A DNA stretch of 64,000 nt from Verrucomicrobiia bacterium (GTDB lineage: Bacteria; Verrucomicrobiota; Verrucomicrobiia; Limisphaerales; UBA8199): assembly GCA_035651635.1 (NCBI GenBank), contig DASRFK010000152.1, positions 19,505 to 83,504 of the forward strand, given 5' to 3'. The position numbers and the translations under genes were made by a program. This document shows, piece after piece, positions 785 through 62,923 of this stretch; positions within the stretch are counted from its first letter, which is position 1, and each line of letters starts with the position of its first letter. The notes beneath the pieces were generated by a model. It saw nothing but the letters and a program-made list of their open reading frames with translations, ran no database searches and had not been told where the DNA came from.

Positions 785-1064
785 TTGTATTTTCCTTTTG
801 TTGTTTTGGTTAGGAACTCGAGCAAATCTGTGTTTACCGTCTCCGCTTCAGTCGTGGCATCCCATGTCGAAAGCCCGGATAGCTTTTCAGTCCGCTTTTT
901 GAGCGACTTTCCAGTTAAATAACCGGAATTGAAGTTGTATCAGGCGCGCGGAATTTGAAAATGAACAATGGAAGGAAAGAGTTTTCCTTCTAAAGTAGGA
1001 GGCGAGGCGGAAAACGGACTAAATGATCCGGCTGGAAAAAGGATTTACGTATCGAAATTTGCTT

Positions 1065-1697
1065 TCAGAGACGAAGCAATCCCCGGCGGTTTGCCACGGC
1101 GATTGCTTCGGTGCGGCTCAAAACATTTAACTTCTTGAATACCGCCTGGACGTGGCTTTTCACCGTTACCTCAGAAATATCGAGTGCTGCGCCAATGAGT
1201 TTGTTTGGCTTCCCTTCCGCAAGCAGTTTCAAAACCTCGCTCTCACGCGGCGAGAGTTCTTCCCCCGGAAGTCGTTCAGCAAGTTTTGCGGCGATGGCGG
1301 CCGGAACGAATGTCCGACCGGCATGAACTTCACGAATGCACTGGAATAATTCTTCGCGCCTTACATCTTTTAGGAGATACGACTTTGCGCCAGCTCGCAT
1401 TCCGCGATAAATGTCCTCGTCGCCGTCAAATGTGGTAAGAACAATAACTCGGGCGTTTGGTTCGGCAGCGCGGATTTCGTAAATGGCATTCACGCCGTCC
1501 AGTTCCGGCATCCGCAAATCCATCAGCGTAACATCCGGCCTGTGTTTTTTCCAAAGTTCAACCGCCTTACGGCCGTCACCGGTTTCGGCCACCACGTCCA
1601 TATCTTTCTCTTGTTTGATGATTGCAACCAAGCCATCACGAACGACCGTATGATCGTCGGCGACTAAAACACGGATCGCTTTTTTTGCTCTATTCAA
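1065..1697 (-). CDS. NarL/FixJ-family response regulator (receiver + LuxR-type HTH)
   Basis: 210 aa. Receiver motifs VLVADDH and DVTLMDLRMPELDG. C-terminal GerE/LuxR HTH LSPRESEVLKLLAEGKPNKLIGAALDISEVTVKSHV. Overlaps the upstream kinase gene by 8 nt. Confidence 0.9.
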   Translation of the reverse strand: MNRAKKAIRVLVADDHTVVRDGLVAIIKQEKDMDVVAETGDGRKAVELWKKHRPDVTLMDLRMPELDGVNAIYEIRAAEPNARVIVLTTFDGDEDIYRGMRAGAKSYLLKDVRREELFQCIREVHAGRTFVPAAIAAKLAERLPGEELSPRESEVLKLLAEGKPNKLIGAALDISEVTVKSHVQAVFKKLNVLSRTEAIAVANRRGLLRL

Positions 1698-7874: not shown

Positions 7875-7891
7875 TCATACTTTTGGTATGA
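7875..7891. promoter_or_regulatory. LysR-type operator palindrome TCATAC-N5-GTATGA
   Basis: Perfect 6-5-6 inverted repeat, 15 nt upstream of the LysR start at 7906, in the divergent intergenic region. A near-identical site lies at 13898..13914 next to the paralogous LysR. Confidence 0.55.
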
Positions 7892-9091: not shown

Positions 9092-10534
9092 TTAGCCGAT
9101 TACCGCTTTGGGTTCAAGGTACTCCTGCAGCCCGAAGATCCCGCCTTCCCGACCGATCCCCGACTGTTTGAACCCACCGAAGGGAGCAAACGGATCGTGG
9201 CTTACTGTGTTGATCAGGACGCGGCCGGCAGCGAGTTTTCGCGCGACCCGGTAGGCCCTTTCAGGGTCTGCCGAGCTTACGTAGGCGATAAGGCCGAATT
9301 CGGTGTCATTGGCGATTTCAATGGCCTCGGCTTCGGTCTTGTACGTCAGTATCGACAAGACGGGGCCGAAGATTTCTTCCTTCGCGATACGCATGTCGCG
9401 GGTGACTTTTGCGAACACGGTGGGCTTGATGAAATTCCCCCGCTCAAGTCCTTGGGGATGACCTTCCCCGCCGATGACGAGCTCCGCACCTTCCTCGACC
9501 CCAGACTTGATGTACTCCTGCACGCGCTGGTACTGCTTTGTGCTGGCCAATGGGCCGAGGGTGACGTCCTTATCCTTTGGATCGCCTATTTTGATTTTTT
9601 CGACGGCCGCCTTGGCCAATCGCTTCACTTCCTCGAGGCGGTCTTCCGGCACAATCAGACGCGAAGCCGCAATGCAGGCCTGCCCGTTATTCAGATAACA
9701 GGCGTTGATGGCCATCGGGATCGCCGTTGAGAGATCGGCGTCGTCCAGGATGATGTTAGGCGACTTGCCTCCGAGCTCAAGCGTGAAGCGTTTCATTGTG
9801 TCCAGTGAGTTCTTGGCGACCAGTTTTCCGATCTGCGTCGAACCGGTGAAAGCGATTTTCTGAATGTCGGGGCTTTTCGTTAACTCCGTCCCGACGACTT
9901 CGCCAAGGCCCGTCACGACATTGATAACGCCGGGAGGCAACCCGGCTTCATGAAAGGCGTCCATCAACACTTCCGTTTGCATCGCACTCATCTCGCTGGG
10001 CTTGATGACGACCGTGCATCCGGCAGCGATTGCCGGTGCCACTTTGATCGCGATCGAGCCGGCGCTCGAATTCCATGGCGTAAATATGCCCACCACGCCG
10101 GCCGGCTCCATCACGACCTTAGATGTGCCGACAGTCTTGACCAGGTCGAAATCCTCGAGGACCTTCTTGAAGTGCAGGAAAATGTTTGCCGCGAGGTTGT
10201 TGGAGCCCTTCGCACGGTCTTGCGGTGCGCCGTATTCCACCACCGTCGCCTCAACGAGTTGATCCATTCTCTTGGCCACGGCGTCGTGCAACCGCTGCAG
10301 GCAGTCCATCCGGTGTTCCTTGCTACTTTGCGAAAAGGCGTTGAAGGCCTCTTTCGCAGCAGCGATGGCTTTTCGGGTGTCGATTTCGTCTGCCATGGTG
10401 ACCTTGCCGATAATCTTGTTGTCGGTCGGGTTCACCAGATCGACGACCTGGGTTCCATGCGGTGTGACGAACTGGCCATTGATATAGGCGCGATCAAATG
10501 CCTTTACTGGAGTCGCGGTTTCATGTGTTTTCAT
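9092..10534 (-). CDS. NAD(P)-dependent aldehyde dehydrogenase
   Basis: 480 aa. FTGST.IG, ELGGKSP, catalytic NNGQACIAASR, and C-terminal EYLEPK. Confidence 0.92.
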   Translation of the reverse strand: MKTHETATPVKAFDRAYINGQFVTPHGTQVVDLVNPTDNKIIGKVTMADEIDTRKAIAAAKEAFNAFSQSSKEHRMDCLQRLHDAVAKRMDQLVEATVVEYGAPQDRAKGSNNLAANIFLHFKKVLEDFDLVKTVGTSKVVMEPAGVVGIFTPWNSSAGSIAIKVAPAIAAGCTVVIKPSEMSAMQTEVLMDAFHEAGLPPGVINVVTGLGEVVGTELTKSPDIQKIAFTGSTQIGKLVAKNSLDTMKRFTLELGGKSPNIILDDADLSTAIPMAINACYLNNGQACIAASRLIVPEDRLEEVKRLAKAAVEKIKIGDPKDKDVTLGPLASTKQYQRVQEYIKSGVEEGAELVIGGEGHPQGLERGNFIKPTVFAKVTRDMRIAKEEIFGPVLSILTYKTEAEAIEIANDTEFGLIAYVSSADPERAYRVARKLAAGRVLINTVSHDPFAPFGGFKQSGIGREGGIFGLQEYLEPKAVIG

Positions 10535-10680: not shown

Positions 10681-10832
10681 TCGTGTCTAAATGCCGCCTT
10701 GGCACCGCAACCGGTGACATGTGCCGAAACGCCGTTCTGGTATCTTGGTTAAGTTCTCAGGTGTAGAACGTGTGTCAGAAGAGCCGGATTAAACCGGCTT
10801 TTTTGTTGTACCAATGCAGCCGGCATCAATAC
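10681..10832 (+). repeat. R element copy 1 (about 150 nt, ends in an intrinsic terminator); sRNA or mobile-element candidate
   Basis: Aligns with 20569..20722. The ~93-nt core from GGTGACATG to GTTGTACC has about 5 mismatches. The last ~56 nt (GTTCTCAGGTGTAGAACGTGTGTCAGAAGAGCCGGATTAAACCGGCTTTTTTGTTGTACC) are identical. Same orientation in both copies. Confidence 0.7.
10782..10806 (+). terminator. rho-independent terminator-like hairpin inside R copy 1
   Basis: AGCCGG-ATTAAA-CCGGCT followed by TTTTTT. It is preceded by a second small hairpin, GTTCT-caggtgt-AGAAC. Confidence 0.5.
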
Positions 10833-11187
10833 TGTCCGGCTCAAAGGGCGATGGCCCGACGGGCAAAAGCGCACGTTACTGAAGTGCCTCGCAGCCATAC
10901 CGTCTACGTTTCACAACCAACAGAGGTTGCAGAGTTCATCCGGCAGGCAACCGATGCTTTATTTGAACTGCAATTGGGCCACCGAGACTTGTCCAGCGAC
11001 CGGCGAAGGTTTTGAAGTGCTTCGCCGGTGATTTTCATTTGTTGAGTGATGTGCGAATGCGTCGCTTTAACCTGAATAGTGAGAAAACCACAGCGCTGGT
11101 CCTTTCCCCCGGTATCGATACCTTGAACGACAACTCTCAAGATCCGAGTTTCAGACGCAGTTTCGCGACGCTCTGTGCGAACCTCGA

Positions 11188-17644: not shown

Positions 17645-18211
17645 ATGAATGCATTAAGAATCGCGGTCATCATCGGAAGCACACGGCCTGGGCGCAACGG
17701 CGAGGCCGTGGCCAAATGGGTTTATGAAATCGCCCAAAAGCGTGCCGACGCAGAGTTCGAACTCGTGGACATCAAAGATTTCAATCTCCCGCTTCTCGAC
17801 GAGCCAATGCCGCCATCGATGGGACAATACAGTAAGCCTCACACCAAAGCATGGGCCGCCAGGATCGGCTCTTTCGATGGCTACGTCTTCGTTGCGCCCG
17901 AGTACAATCATGGCATCTCCGGTGCACTCAAGAACGCGATCGATTTTCTTTTCGCTGAATGGAACAACAAGGCCGCCGGCTTCGTCAGCTATGGCGGTGC
18001 CGGCGGCGCGCGTGCCGTCGAGCAGTTGCGGCTGGTACTGGCCGAGGTTCAAATCGCCACGGTGCGCAATCAGGTCTTGCTCTCCATGTTTACCGACTTT
18101 GAAAACTTCAGCGTCTTCAAGCCGCTTGCCCGGCACGAGAAGTCGGTCAATGAAATGTTCGACCAGGTCATTGCTTGGGGCGGCGCGTTAAAAGCGCTGC
18201 GGGAGAAATGA
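17645..18211 (+). CDS. NADPH-dependent FMN reductase
   Basis: MNALRIAVIIGSTRPGRNG..PEYNHGISGALKNAIDFL. By eye roughly 85% identical to the paralog at 59926..60486. Confidence 0.85.
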   Translation: MNALRIAVIIGSTRPGRNGEAVAKWVYEIAQKRADAEFELVDIKDFNLPLLDEPMPPSMGQYSKPHTKAWAARIGSFDGYVFVAPEYNHGISGALKNAIDFLFAEWNNKAAGFVSYGGAGGARAVEQLRLVLAEVQIATVRNQVLLSMFTDFENFSVFKPLARHEKSVNEMFDQVIAWGGALKALREK

Positions 18212-18245
18212 GCAAGGCCTGAGAAGAAACTCACCCCTTAACAAA

Positions 18246-19163: not shown

Positions 19164-19352
19164 ATGCGACCATTCACTCAATGCGAATCGAAATTATGGA
19201 AACGCTACTCCACCAAAGTCATCTTAACCGTCCAGGATCTCGATCGATCGATTGCCTTTTATGAGGCGGCTCTCAAGCCGCTCGGCATTATCCATGCCAT
19301 CGATTTCGCCGGCAATAGAGCCCGCACAGGTCCATTGCACTATTTGTTATAG
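19164..19352 (+). pseudogene. VOC/glyoxalase-family N-terminal fragment
   Basis: KVILTVQDLDRSIAFYEAALKPLG is a typical VOC first beta-alpha-beta unit. The ORF stops after 62 aa, where the convergent GHL10-like gene ends (13-nt overlap). Confidence 0.45.
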
Positions 19353-20461
19353 GCTGCGTTGCACTTCTTAATGACGGCCAACTGTGCGTCCTGGAGGGAG
19401 TTGAGGTTGAAGAAGGAAACTCCGACGGCGCCGTTGTCGTGCGCCTGACGGATGGCTTCCTCGAAATCAGCCATGTCGTCTCCGTAATTGCCCACTGATA
19501 ATCCGGTGAAAAGATGCTGGCCGGGCTTTAGATCGCGGACCGCCTGTTTGGTGGCGAAACCCACCCAGTACAGGTTCCCATTATGGTCGTTCTTGTAGTC
19601 CATTGGGAAAACGAGGTCCAGGTCCCAGTGCGGCCAGTCTTGTTTGACGTATTCCCGAGCCAATTCAGGGAAAGGAAAGACGGCGGCCGATGCCAGCGTT
19701 CCATTTTCATGGCAGATCTGCACACACTCATTGACCAGCGACGAGATGGCGTCCATTCGGAACTGTTTCCAGGCGGCATTCTCCGCCGTGTCGGGCATAT
19801 CCATCGGGTCCACGCCGAACTTCGCCTTGAATTCCTGCCGGGCGAGCGGGTGGTAACCAAAGTCATACTCGGGCAGCAGCCGGTCTTGCACCAACGGAAG
19901 CCCGTTTGTATACCGGTAATGCTTCTGCAACTGGGCCCCGAGGATGACATCCACAAAGCGGATGTAGTCGAAATGCACGGAGGCCAGCCCTTTGACTTGC
20001 GCGACCTCTTTGACCCCCTTCGTGATATAATCCCGCGCGCCTGGAGAAAAGGGACTGAGGAAACTGTAATAATTGACGTAAGGGTGAAAATCGAAGCAAC
20101 TCTGCCCGAGCCGGTTGACGGAATACCAATCCGGGTGTTGACGGCACTCCGCGGCGTTGCCCACATTCATCATCCAATGCCAGGCATGAACTCGGATGCC
20201 GACTTGGCTCCCCAAGTCAACCAACACCGTCAATTGCGCAGCGGTCTTATTTTCAGGGAGAATGTCAGTGATGCCCGCCTCCGCCAGCCGCTTCATGCCC
20301 GCCAGTTGGGTCTCGCCGGAACCTCGCGGCACTCCCCAGGCTGCAAAATAGAATTTCTTGTCCGTATAACCGACGCCAGGCGCCTTGTTGGCGGTGTCGG
20401 CCGCCGTCGCCAAAGCCCCGCTCGCGGCGAGAAATAGTGCGATTCTTTTTATTGTCTTCAT
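19340..20461 (-). CDS. secreted TIM-barrel glycoside-hydrolase-like protein (GHL10/DUF187-like)
   Basis: Likely start MKTIKRIALFLAASGALATAA (signal peptide). FLSPFSPGARDYITKGVKEVAQVKGLASVHFDYIRF resembles the GHL10 core. Confidence 0.5.
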   Translation of the reverse strand: MKTIKRIALFLAASGALATAADTANKAPGVGYTDKKFYFAAWGVPRGSGETQLAGMKRLAEAGITDILPENKTAAQLTVLVDLGSQVGIRVHAWHWMMNVGNAAECRQHPDWYSVNRLGQSCFDFHPYVNYYSFLSPFSPGARDYITKGVKEVAQVKGLASVHFDYIRFVDVILGAQLQKHYRYTNGLPLVQDRLLPEYDFGYHPLARQEFKAKFGVDPMDMPDTAENAAWKQFRMDAISSLVNECVQICHENGTLASAAVFPFPELAREYVKQDWPHWDLDLVFPMDYKNDHNGNLYWVGFATKQAVRDLKPGQHLFTGLSVGNYGDDMADFEEAIRQAHDNGAVGVSFFNLNSLQDAQLAVIKKCNAAYNK

Positions 20462-20568
20462 AAGAACAACATAATTGCCTGCGGATCTCGGCTTATAATC
20501 GGCTGGCATCTCCGTGCTCCGGACATTCCGCTCGGGGTGTCCGCGCCGAATCAAAGTGGCAAACTGCA

Positions 20569-20722
20569 TCGTGTCTCAATGCCGGCACTTGTCCCCACAA
20601 CTGGTGACATGCGCCGAAACGACGTTCTGGTATCTTGCTTATGTTCTCAGGTGTAGAACGTGTGTCAGAAGAGCCGGATTAAACCGGCTTTTTTGTTGTA
20701 CCGAACCAGCCAGCATCAACGC
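20569..20722 (+). repeat. R element copy 2
   Basis: See copy 1 (10681..10832). Lies between the 5' end of the GHL10-like gene (minus strand) and the cupin gene (plus strand). Confidence 0.7.
20672..20696 (+). terminator. rho-independent terminator-like hairpin inside R copy 2
   Basis: Identical AGCCGGATTAAACCGGCTTTTTT. Confidence 0.5.
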
Positions 20723-20797
20723 TATCGCCGATTCCTCAACCCAGCAATGCAATTTGGCTGCCGGCGTATATTGGCGTAACTTTTCACAGGAGTCGAA

Positions 20798-21549: not shown

Positions 21550-23831
21550 ATGAGAATGAATTCGTTTCCCATTGTCCTTATCCTCCTTTCAATTGCTACC
21601 ACTGCGATGGCCTCTCCAAGCGACGGCAATTCGTTCATTGCCGGGAATGACGTGATTTGGATGACGCTCGGCACCAATGAAAACGATTCGATGCCGATTG
21701 GCAACGGCGATTTAACGGCGAATGTTTGGACCGAGCAAAACGGGAGTATTGTATTGCTGATTGCGAAAACAGATGCTTGGAGTGAAAATGGGCAACTGCT
21801 TAAGCTTGGCCGGGTACGTGTCGATCTGGATCCCAATCCGTTTAGAAGTTCAGCCTCATTTGCCCAGACTTTGAAATTGGAAACCGGTGAGGTGGAACTC
21901 CGAGCAGGGAGCAATCTCGCCCGCATTTGGGTGGATGCGAATAACCCGGTGGTGCACGTGCAAGTTCAAACCGAATCTCCCGGCCTGGTGAAAGCCACAT
22001 CTGAAGTCTGGAGGACAAACGAATTTAGTTTCGATACTCGAGCTATTGATCGAACCGGATTGGGATTCTTTGAATGGGGAGGTTACCCTGACAGTTTAAC
22101 ATTCTATCCGGATACCATTCTCCAGTCAAAAGGCAACCGAGTGTCCTCGTGCCATTTTAATACGCATAGCATTTACCCAATGGTTTTTGAAAAAGAGCAC
22201 TTGGGATCATTGTTGCCTAACTATCCGGATCCACTAATGCACCGCTGCTTCGGCCTCACCATGAAAGGAGACAATCTGGTAAGCAGCGATAATCAGACGT
22301 TAAAATCGTTGAAGGCTTCCAACTCACAACAGGTTGATATTTATGCGCTCACCGAGCAAACGGAATCGCCCGAGGTCTGGCGTGCTGATCTGGACAAGAA
22401 AATTAAGAGGATTGATGCGATTAAAATAAGCAAAGCCTGGACGGCGCATGAGAATTGGTGGAAAGAATTTTGGAATCGTAGTTGGATTAACGTGACGAGT
22501 ACACCGGATACGGGAAAAGTTACCCAGGGCTACGCTGTGCAGCGCTTCATGACCGCGTGCGCGGGTCGGGGGGCGCAGCCGATCAAGTTTAACGAGACCG
22601 CGTTCACGGTGGGCCATGATCTGCCGCCGGGCACGGTTCCGACCGGGGCAAACCATGATCCCGATTACCGAGCATGGGGCGCATGTTTTTGGAACCAAGA
22701 CACCCGCCTTATTTACTACCCTTTGATCGCAGCAGGGGACTATGACTTGCTCGAGCCTTGGTTTGATTTGTATTTGAAAGCGCTGCCGTTGGAGAAGGAT
22801 CGGACACGGGTTTACTACCACCACGATGGGGCGTATTTTCCCGAAACAATGTATTTCTGGGGCTTGCCCAACCTTCATGATTTCGGTTTCAACAATCCCA
22901 CCGTGGAATTGAGAGCCCATGGGTGCGCTACCATATTCAGGGCACGCTCGAAATCATCACGCAAATGCTCGATGTCTACGACAACTCCCAGGACTCGCGC
23001 TATGCCAAGGAACTTGTTCCTTTTGCTGACGCCATTGTCACCTTCTATGCGAGCCACTGGCCGCGCGATTCCAAGGGCAAAATCCACATGGCACCAGTTC
23101 AATCGTTGGAAACGTATGAAGTGGACGCAGTCAATCCCACACCTGATATTGCCGGACTAAAAAGCGTCATTCCGCGACTGTTGGCTTTGCCCAAAAACTT
23201 CACCTCGTCAGAGAAGCGAGACTATTGGGCCAAGACCCTCGAGGATTTGCCGCCGCTTCCAATGGGCAAAACCGCGCGCGGCAAGTTGCCTCCCGATGGC
23301 GTCGGCGATGCCGATGGCCGCCTCACCGTTCTGCCCGCCGAAAAATACGGTGCAACCCACAATAGCGAAAACCCTGAACTCTATGTGGCCTATCCCTATC
23401 GCCTCTATGGTGTGGGCAAAGGTGATCTCAAACTGGCACGGGACACTTACAATGCCCGGCGGTTTCCAATGGATAGAGGCTGGGGGCAGGATGGCACGCA
23501 GGCCGCGATCCTGGGCCTGACCAAGGAGGCTCAGAGGGTCGTCGTGAGAGAGTTTACCGCTTACGGGCGCCAGCGGTTTCGTTGGTTTTGGGATCCTGAG
23601 TGCGGCGGCTCGGGCATGATCACGCTTCAATTGATGTTGATGCAATGCGACGGCAAACGCATCCTGTTGCTGCCCGCTTGGCCGGCTGAGTGGACCGCCG
23701 ATTTCAAACTCCACGCGCCCTATCAAACGACGGTGGAAGGCCACGTCGAAAACGGCAAGATTACACATCTGCAGGTCACGCCGAAATCGAGGGCCAAAGA
23801 CGTAATCATTGAGCCAGTTGGCAGCTCTTAA
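21550..23831 (+). pseudogene. DUF5703_N/GH95-like glycoside-hydrolase-like protein interrupted by a frameshift (or a sequencing error)
   Basis: Signal peptide, then DSMPIGNGDLTANVWTEQNGSIVLLIAKTDAWSENGQLLKLGRVRVDL. Frame 1 becomes Arg/Ser-rich nonsense after ..NNPTVELRA (~22915). The shifted frame, open from ~22888, continues with plausible protein: (W)VRYHIQGTLEIITQMLDVYD... Confidence 0.55.
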
Positions 23832-29407: not shown

Positions 29408-29570
29408 AATTCACGTCATCAGAGAAGCGACTTTTGGGCCGAGACGCTCAATGATTTGCCGCCGATTCCAATGGGCAAAACCGCGCGCGGCAAGTTGCCT
29501 CCCAATGGCGTAGGGCTCTTCTCCAACAACCGGGCTAACATTGAACCGCACTTTTCCCCGCAGTCCTGCC
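29408..29570 (+). pseudogene. relic of a second DUF5703-like gene
   Basis: SEKR..WAETLNDLPPIPMGKTARGKLPPNGVG..NNRANIEPHF parallels SEKRDYWAKTLEDLPPLPMGKTARGKLPPDGVG..HNSENPELY encoded at ~23190..23390. It carries indels and has no start. Confidence 0.6.
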
Positions 29571-36265: not shown

Positions 36266-38143
36266 TCAGAAAGCGAAGCAGTCGCAGCCCGATCCGAAGA
36301 AGCCGGCATAGCGATTGCGAGCGGCCTCGATGCCCGCGAGAAGTTGATGGCCCGCATGGACGCAGCCATGATGATGGCATTTGGCATCGTGCTGATGCTG
36401 CGGCATCGGTACACCTGCTCGCGCAGCCTTGCGAACGTCCAACGGCGCGCCGTAACCGCCGAACACCTTCACCGGCGACCATTCCGGCAAAACCGGAATT
36501 GGGGGTGGCGTGTGCGAAGCGAATTCCTCGGTCGCGTGAACGATCTTTCCATCAACAATCGTAAGCACGGACTCAATGCTCTTGATCTGCTCCTCGGGCA
36601 CTGACAGATAGTCGTCAGTGAGCACAACCAGGTCCGCCAATTGCCCCGGAGCAAGCGCGCCTTTCTTGCCGCTTTCGCCGGAAAACCAACTGCTGCCTTT
36701 GGTGTAAAGCATCAACGCTTCTTCCCGGCTCAGACAATTTGCCTCGGAATAGAGCGCAGCGCCGCCAACGGTTTTCCCGGCCACGAGCCAGAACAGGGAA
36801 AGCCAGGGGTTGTAGCTGGCCACGCGTGTTGCATCTGTGCCCGCCCCCACGGGAATGCCCAAATCGAGCATTCTCCGAACTGGCGGCGTCCGTTCCGCAG
36901 CCTTACTGCCATAGCGATCCAGAAAGTACTCTCCTTGGAAGGCCATGCGGTCCTGGATCGCAATCCCGCCTCCCAACGCTTTGACTCGTTCGAGGCTGCG
37001 GTCCGAGATGGTTTCGCAATGATCGAAGAACCAATTGGTTCCTTTGAAAGGGATTTCACGATTGACCTCCTCGAACACGTTTAACATCCGGGAGATGCTT
37101 TCGTCATAGGTGGCGTGAATACGGAACGGCCATCTATTTGTAGCCAAGAGCGAAACGACCTCCTTCAAGTCCTTTTCCAGGTTGGACGGAAGGTCGGGCC
37201 GGGGTTCCAGGAAATCCTCGAAATCTGCCGCCGAATAAACCAGCATTTCTCCCGCCCCATTGCAGCGATAGAAATCGTCGCCCTTGCCCGGCTTCGTCAG
37301 TTTCATGCAACGCAGGAAATCATCCTTCTCCTGGTTGGGTTTTTGCGTGAAAATATTATAAGCCATGCGAACGGTCATCTCTCCTCGCTCGTGCAGTTCT
37401 TCGATGATCGCATAGTCGTCCGGGTAGATTTGAGAGCCGCCGCCCGCGTCCACCAAGCTGGTGAGGCCAAGGCGGTTGAGCTCGCGCATGAAATGGCGGG
37501 AAGAGTTCATCTGCTGTTCAGGCGGCAGCTTGGGTTGCTTGCCGACGGTAGCGTAAAGAATTCCGGCATTGGGGCGGGCGATGAGGAGTCCGGTGGGGTT
37601 GCCTTTTCCGTCGCGCTGGATTTCACCCGCCGGTGGATTGGGAGTGTCTTTGGTGTAGCCGCAGGCCCGCAGCGCGGCTTTGTTCAACATGCCGCGGCAA
37701 TACAAGTGCAGGATGAAGACAGGCGTTTCGGGGGAGACGGCGTTGATTTCATCAAGCGTGGGCATACGCCGTTCGGCGAATTGGAACTCGCTCCAACCGC
37801 CGATGACGCGGACCCATTGGCCGGGCGGTGTCCGCTGCGCCTGCTCTTTGAGCATGCGCAAACCGTCCGCGAGGGAGGGAACACCGTCCCAGCGAAGCTC
37901 GAGGTTGTAGCTAAGGCCCCCGCGGATGATATGCATGTGGGAATCGTTGAGTCCGGGAATCACGCGCCGACCTTGTAAATCGATGACCTTCGTGTTCGGT
38001 CCTCGTTGATATTCCTCAGCGTCGTCCACGCCAACGATACGTCCGTCTTTGATGGCAAGATTACTTGCTTCGCGGTTTTTCGCATCTAGCGTGGTGATGC
38101 GTCCGTTGCGGAGTATGAGATCGGGAACAAGTGATGTATTCAT
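36266..38143 (-). CDS. metal-dependent amidohydrolase (Amidohydro_3/YtcJ-like) with Cys/His-rich C-terminal tail
   Basis: Start MNTSLVPDLILRNGRITTLD (ATGA overlap with the upstream gene). PGLNDSHMHIIRGG, IHATYDESI, GAGTDATRV. Tail HQHDAKCHHHGCVHAGH..GSGCDCFAF. Confidence 0.8.
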   Translation of the reverse strand: MNTSLVPDLILRNGRITTLDAKNREASNLAIKDGRIVGVDDAEEYQRGPNTKVIDLQGRRVIPGLNDSHMHIIRGGLSYNLELRWDGVPSLADGLRMLKEQAQRTPPGQWVRVIGGWSEFQFAERRMPTLDEINAVSPETPVFILHLYCRGMLNKAALRACGYTKDTPNPPAGEIQRDGKGNPTGLLIARPNAGILYATVGKQPKLPPEQQMNSSRHFMRELNRLGLTSLVDAGGGSQIYPDDYAIIEELHERGEMTVRMAYNIFTQKPNQEKDDFLRCMKLTKPGKGDDFYRCNGAGEMLVYSAADFEDFLEPRPDLPSNLEKDLKEVVSLLATNRWPFRIHATYDESISRMLNVFEEVNREIPFKGTNWFFDHCETISDRSLERVKALGGGIAIQDRMAFQGEYFLDRYGSKAAERTPPVRRMLDLGIPVGAGTDATRVASYNPWLSLFWLVAGKTVGGAALYSEANCLSREEALMLYTKGSSWFSGESGKKGALAPGQLADLVVLTDDYLSVPEEQIKSIESVLTIVDGKIVHATEEFASHTPPPIPVLPEWSPVKVFGGYGAPLDVRKAARAGVPMPQHQHDAKCHHHGCVHAGHQLLAGIEAARNRYAGFFGSGCDCFAF

Positions 38144-40917: not shown

Positions 40918-41640
40918 TCAGTGAGCGGCGACAGGAGTCATGCCGCGATTCGAAGTGTGTCCGTCGCCGGTAACTTTCTTTGGCACGATCTGTGGCTTTT
41001 GAGCGGTTTGGGGTGCGTGGTGGACCATCGTATAGGCGTATTCAACGCCAACGCCGTAAGCGCCCGCTTGGGGTCGGAGGAGTTTCATAAGCGCGTCGTA
41101 ATGCTCCTTGTTCTTCCAATCGCGCTGCCATTCAAGTAAGGCGCCAATCGTGGTCAACCGCACTGCGCCGGCTTGCACCATGCGCGAAAGGGCCGCCTCT
41201 TGTGCGTCAGGTGAAGTCGCACCACAGCAATCCTGAACGACATAAACGTTATAACCTGCTCCGAGCATTTCGATCGTAGGCCAGGTGACGCAAACCTCGG
41301 TCCAGAGGCCGGTCATGATGATGTTCTTGCGCCCGGTGGCCTCGATGGCTTTGCGGAACTCCATTGAGTCCCACGAGTTCATCGAGCTGCGTTCAATCAC
41401 AGGTTGGCCCGGAAAAATGTCCAACAACTGCGGCCAGACATAACCGCTGAAGGATTCGGTCTCCACAGAAGTGAGCACTGTGGGCACCTTGAATTCCTTG
41501 GCGACTTTAGCCAACAAGGTTACGTTGTTGATCATCGTGGCGCGATCTGCGTTGGCAACGCCGAAGAGCATCTGCGGCTGAAAGTCGATGAATACAATTG
41601 CAGAATCTTCGGGCGTGTAGGGTCTGTGGTATTGATTCAT
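40918..41640 (-). CDS. isochorismatase-family hydrolase (full-length paralog of 281..784)
   Basis: 240 aa. IVFIDFQPQM, IIMTGLWTEVCVTWPTIEMLGAGYNVYVVQDCCGA. Confidence 0.85.
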   Translation of the reverse strand: MNQYHRPYTPEDSAIVFIDFQPQMLFGVANADRATMINNVTLLAKVAKEFKVPTVLTSVETESFSGYVWPQLLDIFPGQPVIERSSMNSWDSMEFRKAIEATGRKNIIMTGLWTEVCVTWPTIEMLGAGYNVYVVQDCCGATSPDAQEAALSRMVQAGAVRLTTIGALLEWQRDWKNKEHYDALMKLLRPQAGAYGVGVEYAYTMVHHAPQTAQKPQIVPKKVTGDGHTSNRGMTPVAAH

Positions 41641-41833: not shown

Positions 41834-41888
41834 TGTTTTACTGAGGCTTGTCGGCAATTCTCCAACGCCCCTAGGTCTGATCACCGAA

Positions 41889-42016
41889 TGCTAGAGCCAT
41901 GCCACAGCGTGGAATGGCCGCAATTAGCGCGATTCACCCAGAAAGCCTCGTGCCTGAGAGGTTTTTTACGAACCATTAACTCGCGACTCTTCAAGAATTC
42001 GCGAAGTTTCACGAAA
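41889..42016 (-). promoter_or_regulatory. type I sigma-54 promoter cassette (upstream TCGCGA boxes + -24/-12) facing the isochorismatase-porin-amidohydrolase operon
   Basis: Minus-strand TGGCATggctcTAGCA at 41889..41904 (GG-N10-GC). TCGCGA/TCACGA boxes at 41981..42014, ~90 bp upstream. The whole segment is colinear with the cassettes at 42923.., 61561.. and 62651... Confidence 0.7.
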
Positions 42017-42922: not shown

Positions 42923-43049
42923 TTTTTCGCGAAAGTCGCGAATTCTCGAAGGTTCGAGAGTGATCTCGCCAACGTTCGTTTCAGGCATTGGGCGTTTTTG
43001 GCTGAATTTAGCCGATTTCCTGCAACTCCATGTTGGCACAGCTCTAGCA
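42923..43049 (+). promoter_or_regulatory. type I sigma-54 promoter cassette
   Basis: TTTTTCGCGAAAGTCGCGAATTCTCGAAGG at 42923..42952. TGGCACagctcTAGCA at 43034..43049. The conserved leader CCCAGAGGCGTTGGGAGAGTTCAACAGGCCTTAAAGAAG follows. Confidence 0.75.
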
Positions 43050-43146
43050 TTAGGGAGCTGCACCCAGAGGCGTTGGGAGAGTTCAACAGGCCTTAAAGAA
43101 GTGAAAAGACGAGCACCAAAACTCGGGCACCGCGACCGGTACCAAA

Positions 43147-44534: not shown

Positions 44535-46619
44535 ATGGACAAGGATACTTCATTTAAACACAAAGTGGCCCTTGTGACGAGTGGCACTTGCGGAATTGGC
44601 GCAGCCGCAGCCCTGGCGCTGGGCCGGGTGGGAGCGAAAGTGGTTGTAGCCGGCCGGGGCGAAAGCGAGGGCCAGGCGGTGCTGGATGCCATCAAAAAGT
44701 CCGGCGGCGAAGGGACGTTAGTCAAAAAGGATGTCGGCCGTGAGGTCGATGTGAAGGCGATGGTGGACCGGACCGTGGCGGCGTTCAGTCGTTTCGATTT
44801 TGGCTTTAAGCAAGGAATCCGCGTGAACGCCGTGGCCTTCGGCACGGTAGAAATGGGGGTTCTCATCTGGAATTTCGAAGGTGAGATTGTCGAGGCCAAT
44901 GATTCGTTTCTGAAAATGGTGCAATACGACCGTGAAGACCTCGTCAAAGGTCGCGTGCGTTGGACAGATCTGACACCTGCCGAATGGCGTGATCGCGATG
45001 CACGCGCCTTAAACGACTTAAAGAAGGCGGGCACCGCCCAGCCGTATGAGAAAGAGTTCTTGGGGAAACAAGGCAACCGGGTACCGGTGCTAGTCGGTGG
45101 CGCATTGTTCCAGAAAGGAGGAAACGAGGGTGTAGCTTTCGTGTTCGATCTCACAGAACAAAAGTGCGCCGAGAAGGCCTTGCGGCGAAGCGAAGCCTAT
45201 TTGGCTGAATCACAAAAATTGAGCCACACGGGAAGCTGTGGCTGGAATGTTTCCAACGGAGAACTTTTCTGGTCGGAGGAAACTTACCGAATTGTGGGTA
45301 TCGCTCCAACCACCAAGCCGACGCTCGAGTTGGTATGGCAAATCGTCCATCCAGAAGACCGCGACATAGTGCAGCGGGCAATAGATGACGCCGCGAGAAT
45401 CAGTGCAGACATAGATTCAGAGCACCGTATTGTGATGTCTGATGGGTCATTTAAGGATGTCCACCTTGTCATGCACGCAGTCAAGAACCAAAACGGCAAT
45501 CTCGAGTACATCGGTGCGCTGACGGACGTGACCGCGACGAAAAATGCGTTCCGGCAGATTGAAGGATTGAAAGATCAGCTCCAAAGAGAGAATGTGGCGC
45601 TCCGCGAAGAGGTTGATGCAGCGTCCATGTTCGAGGAAATTATCGGCACTTCGGCTCCGTTAAGGGCGGTGTTGTCTCGCATCTCCAAGGTCGCCCCCAC
45701 CGATTCCACCGTTTTGATCACTGGCGAGACCGGCACGGGTAAGGAGCTAATCGCCCGGGCCATCCATAAACGGTCCGCGCGTGCGGGGCAGGCCTTTGTC
45801 AGCGTGAATTGCGCAGCTATACCACCTTCTCTAATCCATTCGGAATTGTTCGGCCACGAAAGGGGTGCTTTCACCGGAGCAATGCAACGGAAACTTGGCC
45901 GCTTCGAACTGGCGCGGGGAGGCACCTTTTTTCTCGACGAGGTCGGTGAGCTCACAGCGGAGACGCAAGTCGCGTTATTACGGGTATTGCAGGAAAATGA
46001 ATTCGAGCGGGTAGGCGGAACACAGCCTATCCGAGCGGACGTGCGGCTGATCGCAGCGACAAATCGCGACCTCAAGGAGGCAATTGCGTCCGGCGCATTT
46101 CGCAGCGACTTGTTCTACCGGCTGAACGTTTTTCCGATCGAAGTGCCGCCCCTGCGCGAGCGCAAAGAAGATATCCCGATTTTAACCGAGTATTTTATTC
46201 ACCGTTTCGCCGGCCGCATGGGGAAGAGACTCTCGGGTATCGGCCGGAAGACATTGGAGTTATTTCAATCCTACCGTTGGCCCGGCAACATTAGGGAACT
46301 GCAAAACGTCGTGGAGAGATCCGTCATCGTTTGCGAGACCGAAACGTTCTCAGTAGATGAAAGCTGGCTCGCGCGACAAGGCCCGCCGACCGAAACCACT
46401 GTCCGTCCGCTGTCTCAGAGGCTTGCGACAGACGAAAGGGCATTGATCGAAGGCGCCATGGCTGAAACACACGGCAGAGTTTCCGGCCCAGCCGGCGCGG
46501 CGGTAAAGCTCGGCATACCAGCCTCCACACTGGAATCGAAAATCCGAGCGCTCAGAATTAACAAACACCAGTTCAAGCTCGCGGCATATCCCGGACCGCT
46601 TTCATATCCTCTCACCTGA
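44535..46619 (+). CDS. sigma-54-dependent enhancer-binding protein (2 PAS + AAA+ + Fis-type HTH) with an in-frame SDR remnant at the N-terminus
   Basis: AAA+ core VLITGETGTGKELIARAIH, GAFTGA (GAFTGA loop), FLDEVGEL, RVGG, RLIAATNRDL, FRSDLFYRLNVFPI, WPGNIRELQN. C-terminal HTH AAVKLGIPASTLESKIRAL. Residues 1-106 look like an SDR with its catalytic core deleted. Alternative start at 44853. Confidence 0.9.
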   Translation: MDKDTSFKHKVALVTSGTCGIGAAAALALGRVGAKVVVAGRGESEGQAVLDAIKKSGGEGTLVKKDVGREVDVKAMVDRTVAAFSRFDFGFKQGIRVNAVAFGTVEMGVLIWNFEGEIVEANDSFLKMVQYDREDLVKGRVRWTDLTPAEWRDRDARALNDLKKAGTAQPYEKEFLGKQGNRVPVLVGGALFQKGGNEGVAFVFDLTEQKCAEKALRRSEAYLAESQKLSHTGSCGWNVSNGELFWSEETYRIVGIAPTTKPTLELVWQIVHPEDRDIVQRAIDDAARISADIDSEHRIVMSDGSFKDVHLVMHAVKNQNGNLEYIGALTDVTATKNAFRQIEGLKDQLQRENVALREEVDAASMFEEIIGTSAPLRAVLSRISKVAPTDSTVLITGETGTGKELIARAIHKRSARAGQAFVSVNCAAIPPSLIHSELFGHERGAFTGAMQRKLGRFELARGGTFFLDEVGELTAETQVALLRVLQENEFERVGGTQPIRADVRLIAATNRDLKEAIASGAFRSDLFYRLNVFPIEVPPLRERKEDIPILTEYFIHRFAGRMGKRLSGIGRKTLELFQSYRWPGNIRELQNVVERSVIVCETETFSVDESWLARQGPPTETTVRPLSQRLATDERALIEGAMAETHGRVSGPAGAAVKLGIPASTLESKIRALRINKHQFKLAAYPGPLSYPLT

Positions 46620-46636
46620 GGCAAGGGGCAAGCTTG

Positions 46637-46838
46637 ATTCGCGAAGTTTCGCGATTTAACGATTTTCGCGATTTTAATTCCGTCGCTTCGAGATAATTCG
46701 CGCCAGTTCCCAGCACCGCTCTTGTGGCTGTCTTCCAAAATCATAGTGAAATCGCAGGAAAAAAGGCCAGCTCCATTGAATTAACGGAACAATTCCAAGG
46801 CGAAGGCTCTCTTCGACCAGATTGGCACTGTTCTAGCA
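46637..46838 (+). promoter_or_regulatory. type II sigma-54 promoter region (three TCGCGA boxes + -24/-12)
   Basis: ATTCGCGAAGTTTCGCGATTTAACGATTTTCGCGATTTT at 46637..46675. TGGCACtgttcTAGCA at 46823..46838. About 140 nt upstream of the 2Fe-2S subunit gene. Confidence 0.75.
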
Positions 46839-53515: not shown

Positions 53516-53597
53516 ACATCAAGTCAAGGCTCCGAGGGACAATTCTTGAAGCCGTCTCCATTCCGTTCTACCCCCGCTTCGACTTGATTTGCGGTTC

Positions 53598-53789
53598 TTC
53601 GCGATTTCGCGATTTTCGCGATTTTAATTTCAGCGCTTCGAGATCAATTCACGTCGGTTCCAGCACCGCTGTTGCGAGCTTTCTTTCAAAATGCCCTTGA
53701 ATTGGCGGAGAAAACTCCCAGTTCCATTAGGTTAACGGGCGAATTTCAAGGCGAAAACTTCCTTCGATCAGGTTGGCATGGGTCTAGCA
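53598..53789 (+). promoter_or_regulatory. type II sigma-54 promoter region
   Basis: TTCGCGATTTCGCGATTTTCGCGATTTT at 53598..53625. TGGCATgggtcTAGCA at 53774..53789. Colinear with 46637..46838. Confidence 0.7.
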
Positions 53790-53909
53790 ATGCTCAAACT
53801 GTCGGGGCGTGTGATAGGTTCCGGGTCCCGCTGGCCTGAGGAACATGTTTTACACACACGAACTAATGAAGATGTCGGTTTTATTTCGAACAAAGAAAGG
53901 AAAAACGCA

Positions 53910-59821: not shown

Positions 59822-59925
59822 GCACAAATTTGTTGTGGGCTCTCCCAAAGCTGTTGGTAACTGGTTTTTGGTGTTTCCCGCTGCGCACGATCCCTTGAAG
59901 GAGTTGACTGTAAAGCACCTTGTGC

Positions 59926-60486
59926 TCATTTCTCGCGCATCGTTTTCAACGCGCCGCCCCAAGCGATGACCTGATCAAATACCTCGTTAACCGATTTCTC
60001 GTGCTGTGGAGCCGGCTTGAAGACGCTGAAATTTTCAAAGTCGGTAAACATGGAGAGCAGCACTTGGTTGCGCACCGTAGCAATTCGGACCTCGGCCAAC
60101 ACCAACCGTAGCTGCTCGACCCCGCGTGCTCCGCCGGCCCCGCCGTAGCTGATGAAGCCAGCCGCCTTGTCGTTCCACTCGCGGAATAGAAAATCAATCG
60201 CATTCTTGAGCGCGCCAGAGATGCCATGGTTATACTCGGGCGTGACGAAGACATAGCCGTCAAAAGAGCCGATCTTAGCGGCCCATACCTTGGTGTGCGG
60301 TTTGGAATACTGGCCCATTATGGATGGAATTGGCTCGTCCAGCAGGGGCAGGTTGTAGTCTTTGATGTCCACCAGTTCGAACTCGGCGTCGGTGCGCTTT
60401 TTGGCGATTTCGTGGACCCACCTGGCCACGGCTTCCCCGTTGCGACCAGGGCGTGTACTTCCGATGATTATGGCAATTTTAAGCAT
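59926..60486 (-). CDS. NADPH-dependent FMN reductase (paralog of 17645..18211)
   Basis: MLKIAIIIGSTRPGRNG..PEYNHGISGALKNAIDFL. GGAGG RBS upstream. Confidence 0.85.
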   Translation of the reverse strand: MLKIAIIIGSTRPGRNGEAVARWVHEIAKKRTDAEFELVDIKDYNLPLLDEPIPSIMGQYSKPHTKVWAAKIGSFDGYVFVTPEYNHGISGALKNAIDFLFREWNDKAAGFISYGGAGGARGVEQLRLVLAEVRIATVRNQVLLSMFTDFENFSVFKPAPQHEKSVNEVFDQVIAWGGALKTMREK

Positions 60487-60603: not shown

Positions 60604-61413
60604 TCAAAAGAAGAACGTTATACCCAGCAACCCTGTTACGCCGTTGAGACCGAGGTTCGGGTTGCTGATTCCAGCGCAGGACCAATGGACATAACGCGCC
60701 TCCAGGCTGATGGCCATGTTGTCTTTCACGAACCATTGGACTCCCGCTCCCGCCTGGAGGTTGAACTCGAACGTCCCGCTCAAATCAGGAGGCCCGATGC
60801 TCGTGGCTGTCACACCAGCTCCGCCGTCAACAAATGGGATCCACCGTGTTCCCGTTGCAAAGTCGTAGCGCAGGTGCGGCGTCAGACCCACGAGCCATTC
60901 CCTGCTGGGGGAGAATTGGGCGCCGGTGAATAATTCGAGCCGGAATTCCAGGTTGCCCCGATACCAATGGCCCTCACCCCAAACATGGCTCAACATGTGA
61001 CCATACGAGAGAGTGATGAGCGCCAAGTCGTGAGCTTGCACGCTGCCAAAGCTTGAAAAGCCATAGGTGGCCCCGGCGCTTAGACCAAACGAATGCGTCG
61101 TGGACCGAAAGCCTTCGCCAATGCTATGCTCCCATATGCTTGCCTTCTCGGATCCAAGATTGAACTCCTCCGTCGATACACTGTTGGTGAGCGGTAGCAT
61201 TGGGTGTGCGCGGGCCTCCAACGGGGCCGCCGCCCCGGCGCACAAAACCGAGTCGTTGAAGAAGTTTATTAATCCCGAATCGGCACTTGTGAGAGCCGTA
61301 CTTGCCTGCTGTTGTTCCGTCCGAAGGTCACCGCCGGCTATGGCACTCAGTGATGGATTGACCGCGGCTAGCAAGAGGGCGGCTGATATTGTTCTACAAA
61401 TTGTTTGTTTCAC
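60604..61413 (-). CDS. PagL-like acyloxyacyl hydrolase / outer-membrane beta-barrel protein carrying a borrowed N-terminus
   Basis: GTG start. C-terminal two thirds have alternating beta-strand pattern, H.S motif VHWSCAG, and C-terminal GITFFF. The first ~53 aa are near-identical to the SYLF gene at 61976..62506. Confidence 0.5.
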   Translation of the reverse strand: MKQTICRTISAALLLAAVNPSLSAIAGGDLRTEQQQASTALTSADSGLINFFNDSVLCAGAAAPLEARAHPMLPLTNSVSTEEFNLGSEKASIWEHSIGEGFRSTTHSFGLSAGATYGFSSFGSVQAHDLALITLSYGHMLSHVWGEGHWYRGNLEFRLELFTGAQFSPSREWLVGLTPHLRYDFATGTRWIPFVDGGAGVTATSIGPPDLSGTFEFNLQAGAGVQWFVKDNMAISLEARYVHWSCAGISNPNLGLNGVTGLLGITFFF

Positions 61414-61560
61414 ACTCTGGTTTTCCAGTTTTTTGGTTTAATTACATCCGTGAACACATTCTGTTTGAACTATTCCGTCCACTGTTGTTTTGAACGATTC
61501 GTCTTTTTGCTTCTTTAAGCCTTTGTGAATTTCCCGACGCCTCTGGGTCTAGTTCGCTGA

Positions 61561-61687
61561 TGCTAGACCCGTGCCAAAGCGGAGCTGCAGGGAATCAGAT
61601 GGATCAGCCTGAAAAATCCAATGCCTGAGAAGCGCTTCGTGAGTCAACTTGCGATACTTCGAGGATTCGCGACGTTTCGCAAAAAAG
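61561..61687 (-). promoter_or_regulatory. type I sigma-54 promoter cassette
   Basis: Minus-strand TGGCACgggtcTAGCA at 61561..61576. Boxes (minus strand) TTTTTGCGAAACGTCGCGAATCCTCGAAG at 61657..61686. Confidence 0.75.
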
Positions 61688-61975
61688 TTATCGAACGAGC
61701 CTCATCTCGGCCATACCGTTCCCGGTGAGACACGAATGACTCGGCCAGCAATGGCCAGAGTCGATTGAGTTTTAAGGGAAGCGCGGCCAAGGGCTCTTCC
61801 CAGGCCGCGCTCCATTGCGCGAGTCTGTTATCCCGGCGTCCTTGGCGACAGGCAACGGATAAGGGATCTTGAACTCAACTGTCTCCTCGAGAAATTGGGC
61901 ACCTCGTTGGAACGAAAAAGTCTCACAAACTCTTGGACATCAATTTCGCGTGTCCTGCGAGCGACCGGAAGCAGA

Positions 61976-62506
61976 TCAGTCTAACGGCTTATATTTGAAC
62001 TTTTGGCCACCGATTGTCGCCTGGACCATCAGCCCTGTTCTTGGAAGGGTGAACACCGTCACACCGCTCTTATACCTGGTATTTGCCGCTGCACCGTCCG
62101 CAGCGGCAACGGCACTCACTTCCGCGCTCATTTCAAAATTGCTTTGTTTGAAGTTTGACAACGCCTCGGGGGTCTCGAAGAAAATAACTTCGTAGAAGGA
62201 TTGGCCTCCGGCCTGCGGTCCAACGTTGACCTCTGTGAGTGTGGCTTCCCCTATAGGCTTTCCTTTTTCGTAGAGGACCCCTTTCCCACGCTCACTAATA
62301 AGGCCTCCCTTGCCGACGCTAGGGAATACGACGAAACCAACCGAGCCGTTGAAGAAGTTTGTTAATCCCGAATCGGCACTCGTGAGAGCCTTAATTGCCC
62401 GCTCTGCTTCCATCCGAAGATCGTCGCCGGCTATCGCGGTCAGTGCGGGATTGACCGCAGCTAGCAAGAGGGCGGCTGATACTGTGCTGCGAATTGTTTG
62501 TTTCAT
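61976..62506 (-). CDS. SYLF-domain (Ysc84-like, COG2930-type) secreted protein
   Basis: Signal peptide. GFVVFPSVGKGGLI..GKGVLYEKGKPIG..VGPQAGGQSFYEVIFFETPEALSNFK..NFEMSAEVSAVAA..GGQKFKYKPL. Confidence 0.6.
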   Translation of the reverse strand: MKQTIRSTVSAALLLAAVNPALTAIAGDDLRMEAERAIKALTSADSGLTNFFNGSVGFVVFPSVGKGGLISERGKGVLYEKGKPIGEATLTEVNVGPQAGGQSFYEVIFFETPEALSNFKQSNFEMSAEVSAVAAADGAAANTRYKSGVTVFTLPRTGLMVQATIGGQKFKYKPLD

Positions 62507-62650
62507 ACCTCGTTTTCAAGTTTTTGGCTTTAGTTACATCAGTCAACACATGTTTTCTAAACTGTTTCGTCGATTATTGTTTTGCACCATTCGTCTCTTC
62601 CCTTCTGAGGCTTTGTGAATTTACCAACGCCTCTGGGTTTAGTTCGCTGA

Positions 62651-62778
62651 TGCTAGAGTTGTGCCAAGTGGAGTTGCAGAAAATCTGCCATATCAGCCTG
62701 AAAAAAACCAAATGCCTGAGACGAGCTTCGTAAGTTAACTTGCGAAGCTTCGAGAATTCGCGACGTTTCGCGAAAAAG
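62651..62778 (-). promoter_or_regulatory. type I sigma-54 promoter cassette
   Basis: Minus-strand TGGCACaactcTAGCA at 62651..62666. Boxes (minus strand) CTTTTTCGCGAAACGTCGCGAATTCTCGAAG at 62748..62778. Confidence 0.75.
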
Positions 62779-62923
62779 TCCATCAAGCTAAATGCTGACA
62801 CAGGCGCATCAAATGAATGATTCGCCTGAAGACGAAACCATTCCTGAAGGTTTGTCCCCCGAGGGTTTGTGTGGCACTTATAATTGTAGTTTGTCGAAGC
62901 ACGGAATCACGCCGAAATGCAAA

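Follow-up and report, generated by a model that had tools for sequence, protein, structure and literature searches.

The DNA analysed here, a stretch of 64,000 nucleotides from a Verrucomicrobiia bacterium that we refer to as the window (contig DASRFK010000152.1; contig coordinates equal window coordinates plus 19504), carries on its plus strand two copies, A and B, of a short element. The copies lie 9.9 kb apart, copy A near the minus-strand gene of an aldehyde dehydrogenase (9092-10534) and copy B near a GHL10-like gene (19340-20569), also on the minus strand; these neighbours had been named in a first-pass annotation made from the sequence, and the gene positions agree with it. Reading and aligning both regions likewise bore out its view of the copies as direct repeats with unrelated flanks. 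The genes around them are ordinary chromosomal ones, encoding LysR regulators, redox enzymes, glycoside hydrolases, a sigma-54 activator and efflux systems, and the region is not a mobile island. The analysis presented here led us to conclude that each repeat is likely to constitute an entire gene, encoding a small RNA (sRNA) of about 52 nt that probably acts in trans, with sibling copies in Verrucomicrobiae from soil and peat.

Similarity between the two copies starts at TCGTGTCT (10681 in copy A, 20569 in copy B) and fades at about 10836 and about 20726, respectively; a repeat search aligned 10698-10836 with 20588-20726 on the same strand, over 139 nt and with 89% identity. Within this unit 60 nt are identical (10753-10812 and 20643-20702), a run slightly longer than the 56 nt or so first reported, which comprises, in order, the small hairpin GTTCT-CAGGTGT-AGAAC, the linker GTGTGTCAGAAGA, the hairpin AGCCGG-ATTAAA-CCGGCT, a run of six T (10799-10804 and 20689-20694), all of them parts that the first-pass annotation had listed, and GTTGTACC. 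The 35-nt core occurred twice in the window against 0.00 expected from 100 dinucleotide shuffles. A search with nhmmer and the family profile, covering the window and a total of roughly 13 kb of contig sequence on its two sides, detected just these two copies in about 77 kb of a 91-kb ENA metagenome contig. By eye, no target-site duplications were evident on either side of the two window copies. At its 5' side the unit begins with an upstream extension, TCGTGTCTAAATGCCGCC in copy A (10681-10699), which copy B has too (20569-20589) and which is generally absent from the wider family, where this part varies between loci; we take it to have been left by a duplication or gene conversion that occurred recently in this genome. 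The called start of the GHL10-like gene is the ATG at 20569 (409 aa). After a second in-frame ATG, at 20461, comes MKTIKRIALFLAASGALATAAA, which looks like a typical signal peptide; the true start is probably 20461, which would leave an intergenic region of 336 nt around copy B.

A search for further copies, as the first-pass annotation had proposed, was carried out on metagenome contigs and species genomes, and yielded about 50 homologues with unrelated flanks. Scanning JGI metagenome contigs with the exact loop and linker and a free 3' stem (CAGGTGTNNNNNGTGTGTCAGAAGA) returned 55 contigs, of which about 50 hold clear homologues; the assemblies were from soil, peat, wetland and sediment. A second scan, for which the upstream operator and the hairpin loop were required and the linker was left free, covered 185,579 species genomes and gave one true copy, on a contig of a Verrucomicrobiota metagenome-assembled genome (MAG), the other two matches being due to chance; this single true copy implies that the carriers are poorly represented or poorly binned among these genomes. 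The proteins of the window itself are deposited as 'MAG TPA: Verrucomicrobiae bacterium'. Judging by these matches, the family is widespread in uncultured Verrucomicrobia of soil and peat. As to its novelty, the proposed comparison with Rfam (release 15, gathering thresholds) gave no match in the whole window, and five homologous loci gave only a tRNA; a permissive search returned only sroD, an HtrA thermometer and a flavivirus hairpin, all with E > 1. Full-text searches of the literature on Verrucomicrobia sRNAs and on the palindrome half-sites described below retrieved nothing relevant and no description of the family. The family is thus new to Rfam and to the literature, yet it is of a familiar kind, an sRNA gene family, and implies no new principle.

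An alignment of 48 distinct copies from -60 to +68 (column statistics are over 47 copies) revealed that conservation along the unit is strongly position-specific, unlike that of a repeat. The upstream flank carries 0.19 bits per column, and is followed by a 20-bp palindrome, TGTC(C/A)CCA-CAAC-TGGTGACA, and TGC, at 1.84 bits per column; written as half-sites, the consensus of this putative operator is TGTCNCCA-N4-TGGTGACA. Next come a variable, A-rich spacer (0.99 bits) and the motif TGnTATnnT, in which T is present in 46 and G in all 47 copies, n is free (G in 43, A in two, C and T in one each), and the hexamer reads T (47/47), A (47/47), T (43/47), N, Y, T (47/47). Six variable bases in the position of a discriminator (0.92 bits) precede a G (46 of the 47 copies), 7 nt after the hexamer, at which a block of 1.9-2.0 bits begins and extends through the terminator stem and the T-run. 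The signature of an extended -10 promoter is TGnTAnnnT with a free n and conservation resuming 6 nt further on, at the start site. This motif and the 6-nt gap place the transcription start, +1, at 10753 in copy A and 20643 in copy B, and the predicted RNA at about 52 nt (10753-10804 and 20643-20694, with the same sequence in both copies). The extended -10 reads TGgTATCTT in each window copy (10738-10746 in copy A, with TG at 10738-10739 and the hexamer at 10741-10746; 20628-20636 in copy B according to the alignment), and a putative promoter of its own therefore appears to lie directly upstream of the conserved block.

Relative to this start the palindrome spans approximately -53 to -34, with its centre at -43.5, and its right half holds the GTGACA that had been noted 21 nt from TATCTT, a spacing that is correct. 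The first-pass annotation had found no convincing -35/-10 pair; we agree, and the missing pair would be explained by a promoter with an extended -10 and no good -35, apparently dependent on a regulator. What remains as a -35 is poor (aTGcag, with a 16-nt spacer), as would fit a promoter whose activity requires protein binding at the palindrome, around -43.5. Since no usable -35 is present, an activator is likelier, and a repressor is possible. A standard sigma-70 scan for -35/-10 pairs reported no promoter, a result that is uninformative for a promoter devoid of a -35, as the scan demands both hexamers. In copy B the operator-like palindrome (TGTCCCCACAACTGGTGACA, 20590-20609) is exactly the family consensus, and in copy A (TGGCACCG-CAAC-CGGTGACA, 20 bp, 10700-10719) it has three differences, a symmetric change of CCA/TGG to CCG/CGG and one T-to-G change; the regulation of copy A may differ as a consequence.

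We searched for the palindrome beyond these promoters. With up to two mismatches in 333 kb of collected sequence, all but one of its occurrences were at the sRNA genes, the exception (in L038) being chance-like, and with up to three mismatches the window contained elsewhere just two sites, each with three mismatches and also chance-like. No palindrome regulon could be defined from those occurrences. We also asked whether the palindrome might form a hairpin in a longer RNA. In 39 of the 48 copies its fifth pair does not form, and single changes are uncompensated, except for the symmetric change in copy A; we rejected this option, and the palindrome is more likely a protein-binding site. Sigma-54 and extracytoplasmic function (ECF) sigma factor promoters in the conserved upstream block were also discarded, as the spacings of GG/GC and of GAAAC...CGTT do not fit. 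A separate, perfect GC-rich palindrome (TCGTGCTACAG|CTGTAGCACGA or similar) was seen about 5-30 nt upstream of the operator in L037 (183-205), L035 and L009, and only the remnants TCGTG...GCC(G)GC of it are retained in the window copies; it could be an upstream terminator or insulator hairpin.

The predicted RNA consists of a weak hairpin GUUCU-CAGGUGU-AGAAC (10753-10769 in copy A), the linker GUGUGUCAGAAGA (10770-10782), and a terminator hairpin AGCCGG-AUUAAA-CCGGCU (10782-10799) with U6 (10799-10804). The terminator has a GC-rich stem of 6-7 bp, a loop of 6-9 nt and T6; its stem and T-run are invariant in the 48 copies, and its loop (1.07 bits) is the sole part of the conserved block that varies. 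Past the T-run the motif GTTGTAC is near-invariant in all copies (1.86 bits) and is followed by decaying similarity, over about 25 nt in copy A (10805-10836) and as the relic CCGAACCAGCCAGCATCAACGCTATCGCC in copy B (20695-20726). When folded, the 52-mer gives the terminator and a marginal 5' hairpin, with a minimum free energy of -18.5 kcal/mol and z = -3.5. For the whole unit, the plus strand has z of about -3, and the minus strand is less consistent (z = -0.9 in copy A and -2.4 in copy B). The invariant stem and T-run and the fold of the 52-mer argue for an intrinsic terminator at the 3' end of the gene. A consensus terminator scan did not list the hairpin and T6 at 10782-10804 and 20672-20694, likely an artefact of the tool, because an extension of the stem (GAAGAGCCGG/CCGGCTTTTTT, with A-U and G-U pairs) absorbs the T-run.

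An independently transcribed sRNA gene on the plus strand, ending at the T-run, had been proposed at first sight, and the homologues together with the conservation of promoter, transcript and terminator support this proposal. The transcript length of 60-110 nt that had been expected needs correcting: the RNA predicted here is shorter, because the upstream 70 nt or so of the repeat would be promoter and operator DNA. When loci with a common downstream gene are compared, identity reaches 94% in the RNA, against 75% in the promoter region and 55% in 300 nt of downstream sequence, which points to selection on the RNA. L037 is an orthologous locus of copy B, with the same downstream cupin gene. A small protein was also considered, starting at the GTG at 10770 after AGGTG (an ORF, or open reading frame, of 81 aa in copy A and about 39 codons in copy B by hand translation). 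It was ruled out, as the differences after the terminator are all non-synonymous and the frames end differently in the two copies.

Further support for a family of siblings came from loci with more than one copy. By profile and palindrome searches, a diverged paralogue (type 2) was found 1.8 kb from the first copy in L010 (2165-2303, minus strand), L032 and L053, with the same operator at the same spacing plus TGTTATCTT, the same -10 and the same type of terminator. Its 5' part is longer and different (GUCGAUACGAUUUGAAUUUG...), and it keeps UUCUCAG, GUGUGUCAAAGAG and GTTGTAC. The presence of the same operator on diverged paralogues located near each other indicates that these are sibling sRNAs. 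The motifs common to both subtypes are UUCUCAG and GUGUGUCA, which are probably the best candidates for a seed, and not the CAGGUGU loop. In L013 a second similar copy (1010-1084, minus strand) lies about 570 nt from the first, right after a stop codon and without operator; it may derive from a 3' untranslated region or be decaying.

Sorting the copies by their flanking sequence gave 35 groups on the upstream side and 19 on the downstream side; hence the unit does not belong to any adjacent gene. The orientation of the neighbouring genes varies between loci, and overlapping ORFs are short, their similarity stemming from the element; the unit is intergenic and independent of the identity and orientation of its flanking genes. 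Sixteen copies share, downstream, the 3' end of a convergent UPF0045/PF01910 (MTH1187-like) gene, which is full length in some loci and reduced to C-terminal fragments or frameshifted pieces in others. In both window copies the 25-30 nt past GTTGTAC resemble the UPF0045 spacer and stop-codon region, whose CTATCG is kept in copy B and mutated to CTGTCC in copy A. The variable limits of similarity and these UPF0045 relics suggest that small segments of an ancestral sRNA-UPF0045 locus were duplicated repeatedly, with selection acting on the core; the copies apparently spread by small segmental duplication and not by transposition of a fixed unit. Among 13 loci retrieved through three close UPF0045 homologues, one holds an sRNA copy, not adjacent to UPF0045, and homologues of the aldehyde dehydrogenase with more than 90% identity lay in unrelated contexts without the element. 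Genes for transposases of insertion sequence (IS) type (rve_3/HTH_32; DDE_Tnp_1) were observed in L068-L077, about 1.1 kb downstream of UPF0045, and in L065 (2640-6162). Many soil contigs without the sRNA have such genes next to those for UPF0045 and beta-propeller proteins, and the UPF0045/beta-propeller region seems prone to rearrangement.

The repeat itself, its broad occurrence, the dependence of conservation on position, the lack of an Rfam match and the siblings are shown by the results above. From these features we infer the start site, the regulation through a palindrome-binding protein, the base-pairing mode and the use of a chaperone, which together would give the following mechanism. 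A dimeric transcription factor, an activator more likely than a repressor, would bind the 20-bp palindrome near -43.5, and RNA polymerase would use the extended -10 TGnTATnnT to start at the G of GTTCT (10753 or 20643). Transcription would end at the intrinsic terminator AGCCGG-loop-CCGGCT-U6, releasing the RNA of about 52 nt. Its first 30 nt or so, near-invariant and weakly structured, with UUCUCAG and GUGUGUCA, would provide the seed for pairing with target mRNAs, and AGAAGA, which fits (ARN)2, together with the terminator hairpin and the U-tail, resembles a chaperone-binding module of the Hfq type.

Several observations weigh against this interpretation. A scan of the window for targets with RNAduplex did no better than shuffled sRNAs, and the best non-self duplex (-30.4 kcal/mol, within the range of -28.6 to -35.6 obtained with the shuffles) fell inside a LysR-family gene starting at 7888. 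The first 30 nt, including the 5' hairpin, are no more stable than their shuffles (-3.8 kcal/mol, z = 0.03). We looked for compensatory changes, as the first-pass annotation had suggested, and saw changes on both sides at a single terminator pair only, the stems being otherwise near-invariant: the pair closing the loop is AU in 14 sequences, GC in two, UA in two and unpaired in 30, with a two-sided change in four, and within the helices two and five pairs never vary and single changes are only from U-A to U-G or from G-C to G-U. As the stems hardly vary, covariation lends no support, and the argument for structure is a thermodynamic one. In addition, 20 positions of the RNA were fixed by the search pattern, so that their invariance is partly a matter of ascertainment; copies found by other routes have one linker difference each (GAAGA to GAAAA in L057, GTGTGTCAG to GTGTGACAG in L065). 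The start site is placed solely by the -10 spacing and the conservation boundary and must be regarded as putative, and to our knowledge the promoter rules of Verrucomicrobia have not been established experimentally. No regulator gene consistently adjoins the homologous loci, and the proposed gene leaves the invariance of GTTGTAC past the T-run without explanation.

The first-pass annotation had itself offered a miniature mobile element as an alternative, and we weighed the broader case of a non-coding dispersed repeat, similar to miniature inverted-repeat transposable elements (MITEs), repetitive extragenic palindromic (REP) sequences or bacterial interspersed mosaic elements (BIMEs), whose terminator hairpin would arise by chance and which would have no RNA product of its own. 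Like MITEs and REP/BIME repeats, the element is a short intergenic unit with palindromes and more than one copy per genome; it occurs in several unrelated contexts, its copies cluster within a few kb on three contigs, the contigs L021, L039 and L045 end near it, as contigs do at repeats, and IS elements are present in some related loci. Unlike such repeats, however, it has neither terminal inverted repeats nor fixed ends, its local copy number is low, and its conservation follows the logic of a promoter. In the 48 copies its ends, TGTCCCC... and ...GTTGTAC, are unrelated and the only palindrome is internal. Its divergence, rather than decaying uniformly, tracks the promoter spacer, the -10, the discriminator and the transcript, down to the free n of TGn. 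Similarity extends to different limits in different copies and takes in relics of an adjacent gene, only two copies exist in about 77 kb of the contig, and IMG/VR viral contigs contained no match to a degenerate linker-plus-terminator pattern. We therefore consider a dispersed repeat very improbable, and the mobile-element alternative is not supported.

Scarcely more probable is a cassette acting at the DNA level, in which the palindrome and promoter would regulate the neighbouring genes, the hairpin would serve convergent genes such as UPF0045 as a bidirectional terminator or insulator, and the transcript would be incidental. At 16 loci a convergent UPF0045 gene, or what is left of one, does have its stop codon about 30-45 nt short of the hairpin, which could terminate that gene because a run of A precedes the hairpin on the minus strand, and both window copies are in regions upstream of minus-strand genes. 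Nevertheless, read on the minus strand, what comes after the hairpin is CUCUUCUGAC, which makes a poor U-tract; no convergent gene ends at the hairpin in the window copies or in many others, and the orientation of the neighbours is inconsistent between loci. Moreover, the best conserved part is the 30 nt from the start to the terminator, which an insulator does not need. An RNA made as we describe that binds or titrates a protein, for instance a regulator recognising the CAGGUGU hairpin, instead of pairing with mRNA, is a somewhat better though still unlikely alternative. Nearly all of the 52 nt are invariant, which is more than a short seed would require, a stem of 5 bp and a loop of 7 nt are typical of hairpins that bind proteins, and no convincing mRNA complementarity was found in the window. 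This hairpin is thermodynamically marginal, however, and both it and the GG loop are absent from the diverged paralogue, which keeps only UUCUCAG and GUGUGUCA(A/G)AGAG. Each RNA has a single GG motif and no GGA, a pattern from which sponges of the CsrB/Rsm type differ. A trans-acting, probably base-pairing sRNA is the reading that we favour.

Other repeats and motifs were observed in the window. Two paralogous intergenic regions (46633-46694 with 46821-46838, and 53583-53644 with 53772-53790) contain clusters of TTCGCGA/TTTCGCGATTT repeats, located about 170 nt upstream of sigma-54-type promoters (TGGCACtgttcTAGCA and TGGCATgggtcTAGCA). The first region follows directly after a gene for a PAS/sigma-54 activator (44535-46619) and precedes an operon of xanthine dehydrogenase type, and the second precedes an operon for enoyl-CoA hydratase and efflux; together they probably represent the enhancer sites and promoters of a single sigma-54 regulon. 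At 61246-62779 lies a tandem duplication of about 1.09 kb with 78-88% identity; it contains further sigma-54-like promoters (TGGCAC...TAGCA) and TTCGCGA motifs, and has relatives at about 41.8 kb (41846-41905) and, inverted, at about 43.0 kb (43014-43096). Paralogous segments of 300-556 nt with 73-81% identity link 1-641 with 37259-37558 and 41198-41497, and 17659-18214 with 59923-60478, the latter pair being inverted and overlapping flavodoxin-like/FMN-reductase genes. Finally, an 86-nt direct repeat with 91% identity (23220-23305 and 29429-29514) has one copy within the ORF 22923-23831 and the other just after a GH92 gene.

Sets of sibling sRNAs under a shared regulator are exemplified by csRNA1-5 (CiaR, streptococci), OmrA/OmrB (OmpR, enterobacteria) and Qrr1-5 (LuxO/sigma-54, Vibrio). 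The family described here resembles them in that a genome has several short paralogous RNA genes, frequently close together, each apparently with its own promoter, the same regulator site and its own intrinsic terminator, and in that the candidate seed motifs are kept where the rest has diverged between paralogues; as in the csRNA promoters, the putative regulator site lies upstream of the -10 and there is no good -35. In contrast to them, the new family belongs to the phylum Verrucomicrobiota and has no relationship in sequence or in Rfam to these RNAs, its RNA of about 52 nt would be shorter than any of them, and its site is a 20-bp inverted repeat, unlike the direct repeat of CiaR or a sigma-54 promoter. 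With Hfq-dependent sRNAs it shares, as a resemblance of sequence, the (ARN)2-like AGAAGA right before a GC-rich terminator and the U6 tail with GUUGU. The similarity to sroD (RF00370), which cmscan aligned to 10717-10806 (16.1 bits, E = 1.6), stems mainly from the terminator GCCGG-UUAA-CCGGC and the U-run; the model's 40-nt core is left out of the alignment, what aligns at the 5' side is here predicted promoter DNA and the gathering threshold is 50 bits, so that we rejected membership in that family.

It is tempting to go further and regard this as the first family of multi-copy regulatory sRNAs to be described from free-living soil Verrucomicrobiae, a set of near-invariant siblings of about 52 nt under one palindrome-binding master regulator, with a logic like that of Qrr and csRNA, expanded by micro-duplications of a single UPF0045-adjacent locus; we hold this wider proposal as tentative, with the balance somewhat against it. 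A survey of 2022 counted eight distinct annotated sRNAs in the Planctomycetes-Verrucomicrobia-Chlamydiae group versus 345 in Proteobacteria (PMC9029176).

In summary, regulatory RNAs are almost unknown in the Planctomycetes-Verrucomicrobia-Chlamydiae, and the family, abundant in metagenomes of soil, peat and wetland and conserved at nearly every base, offers a well-defined entry point to post-transcriptional regulation in a major uncultured soil lineage. It provides a candidate transcription-factor motif and an example of a putative extended -10 in a phylum with poorly characterised promoters, as well as a possible seed for target prediction across MAGs and a simple probe for metatranscriptomes. 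Should the proposal of a multi-copy family under one master regulator prove true, its operator and seed would open a global regulon, responsive to stress or to cell density, in an abundant uncultured lineage of soil bacteria.

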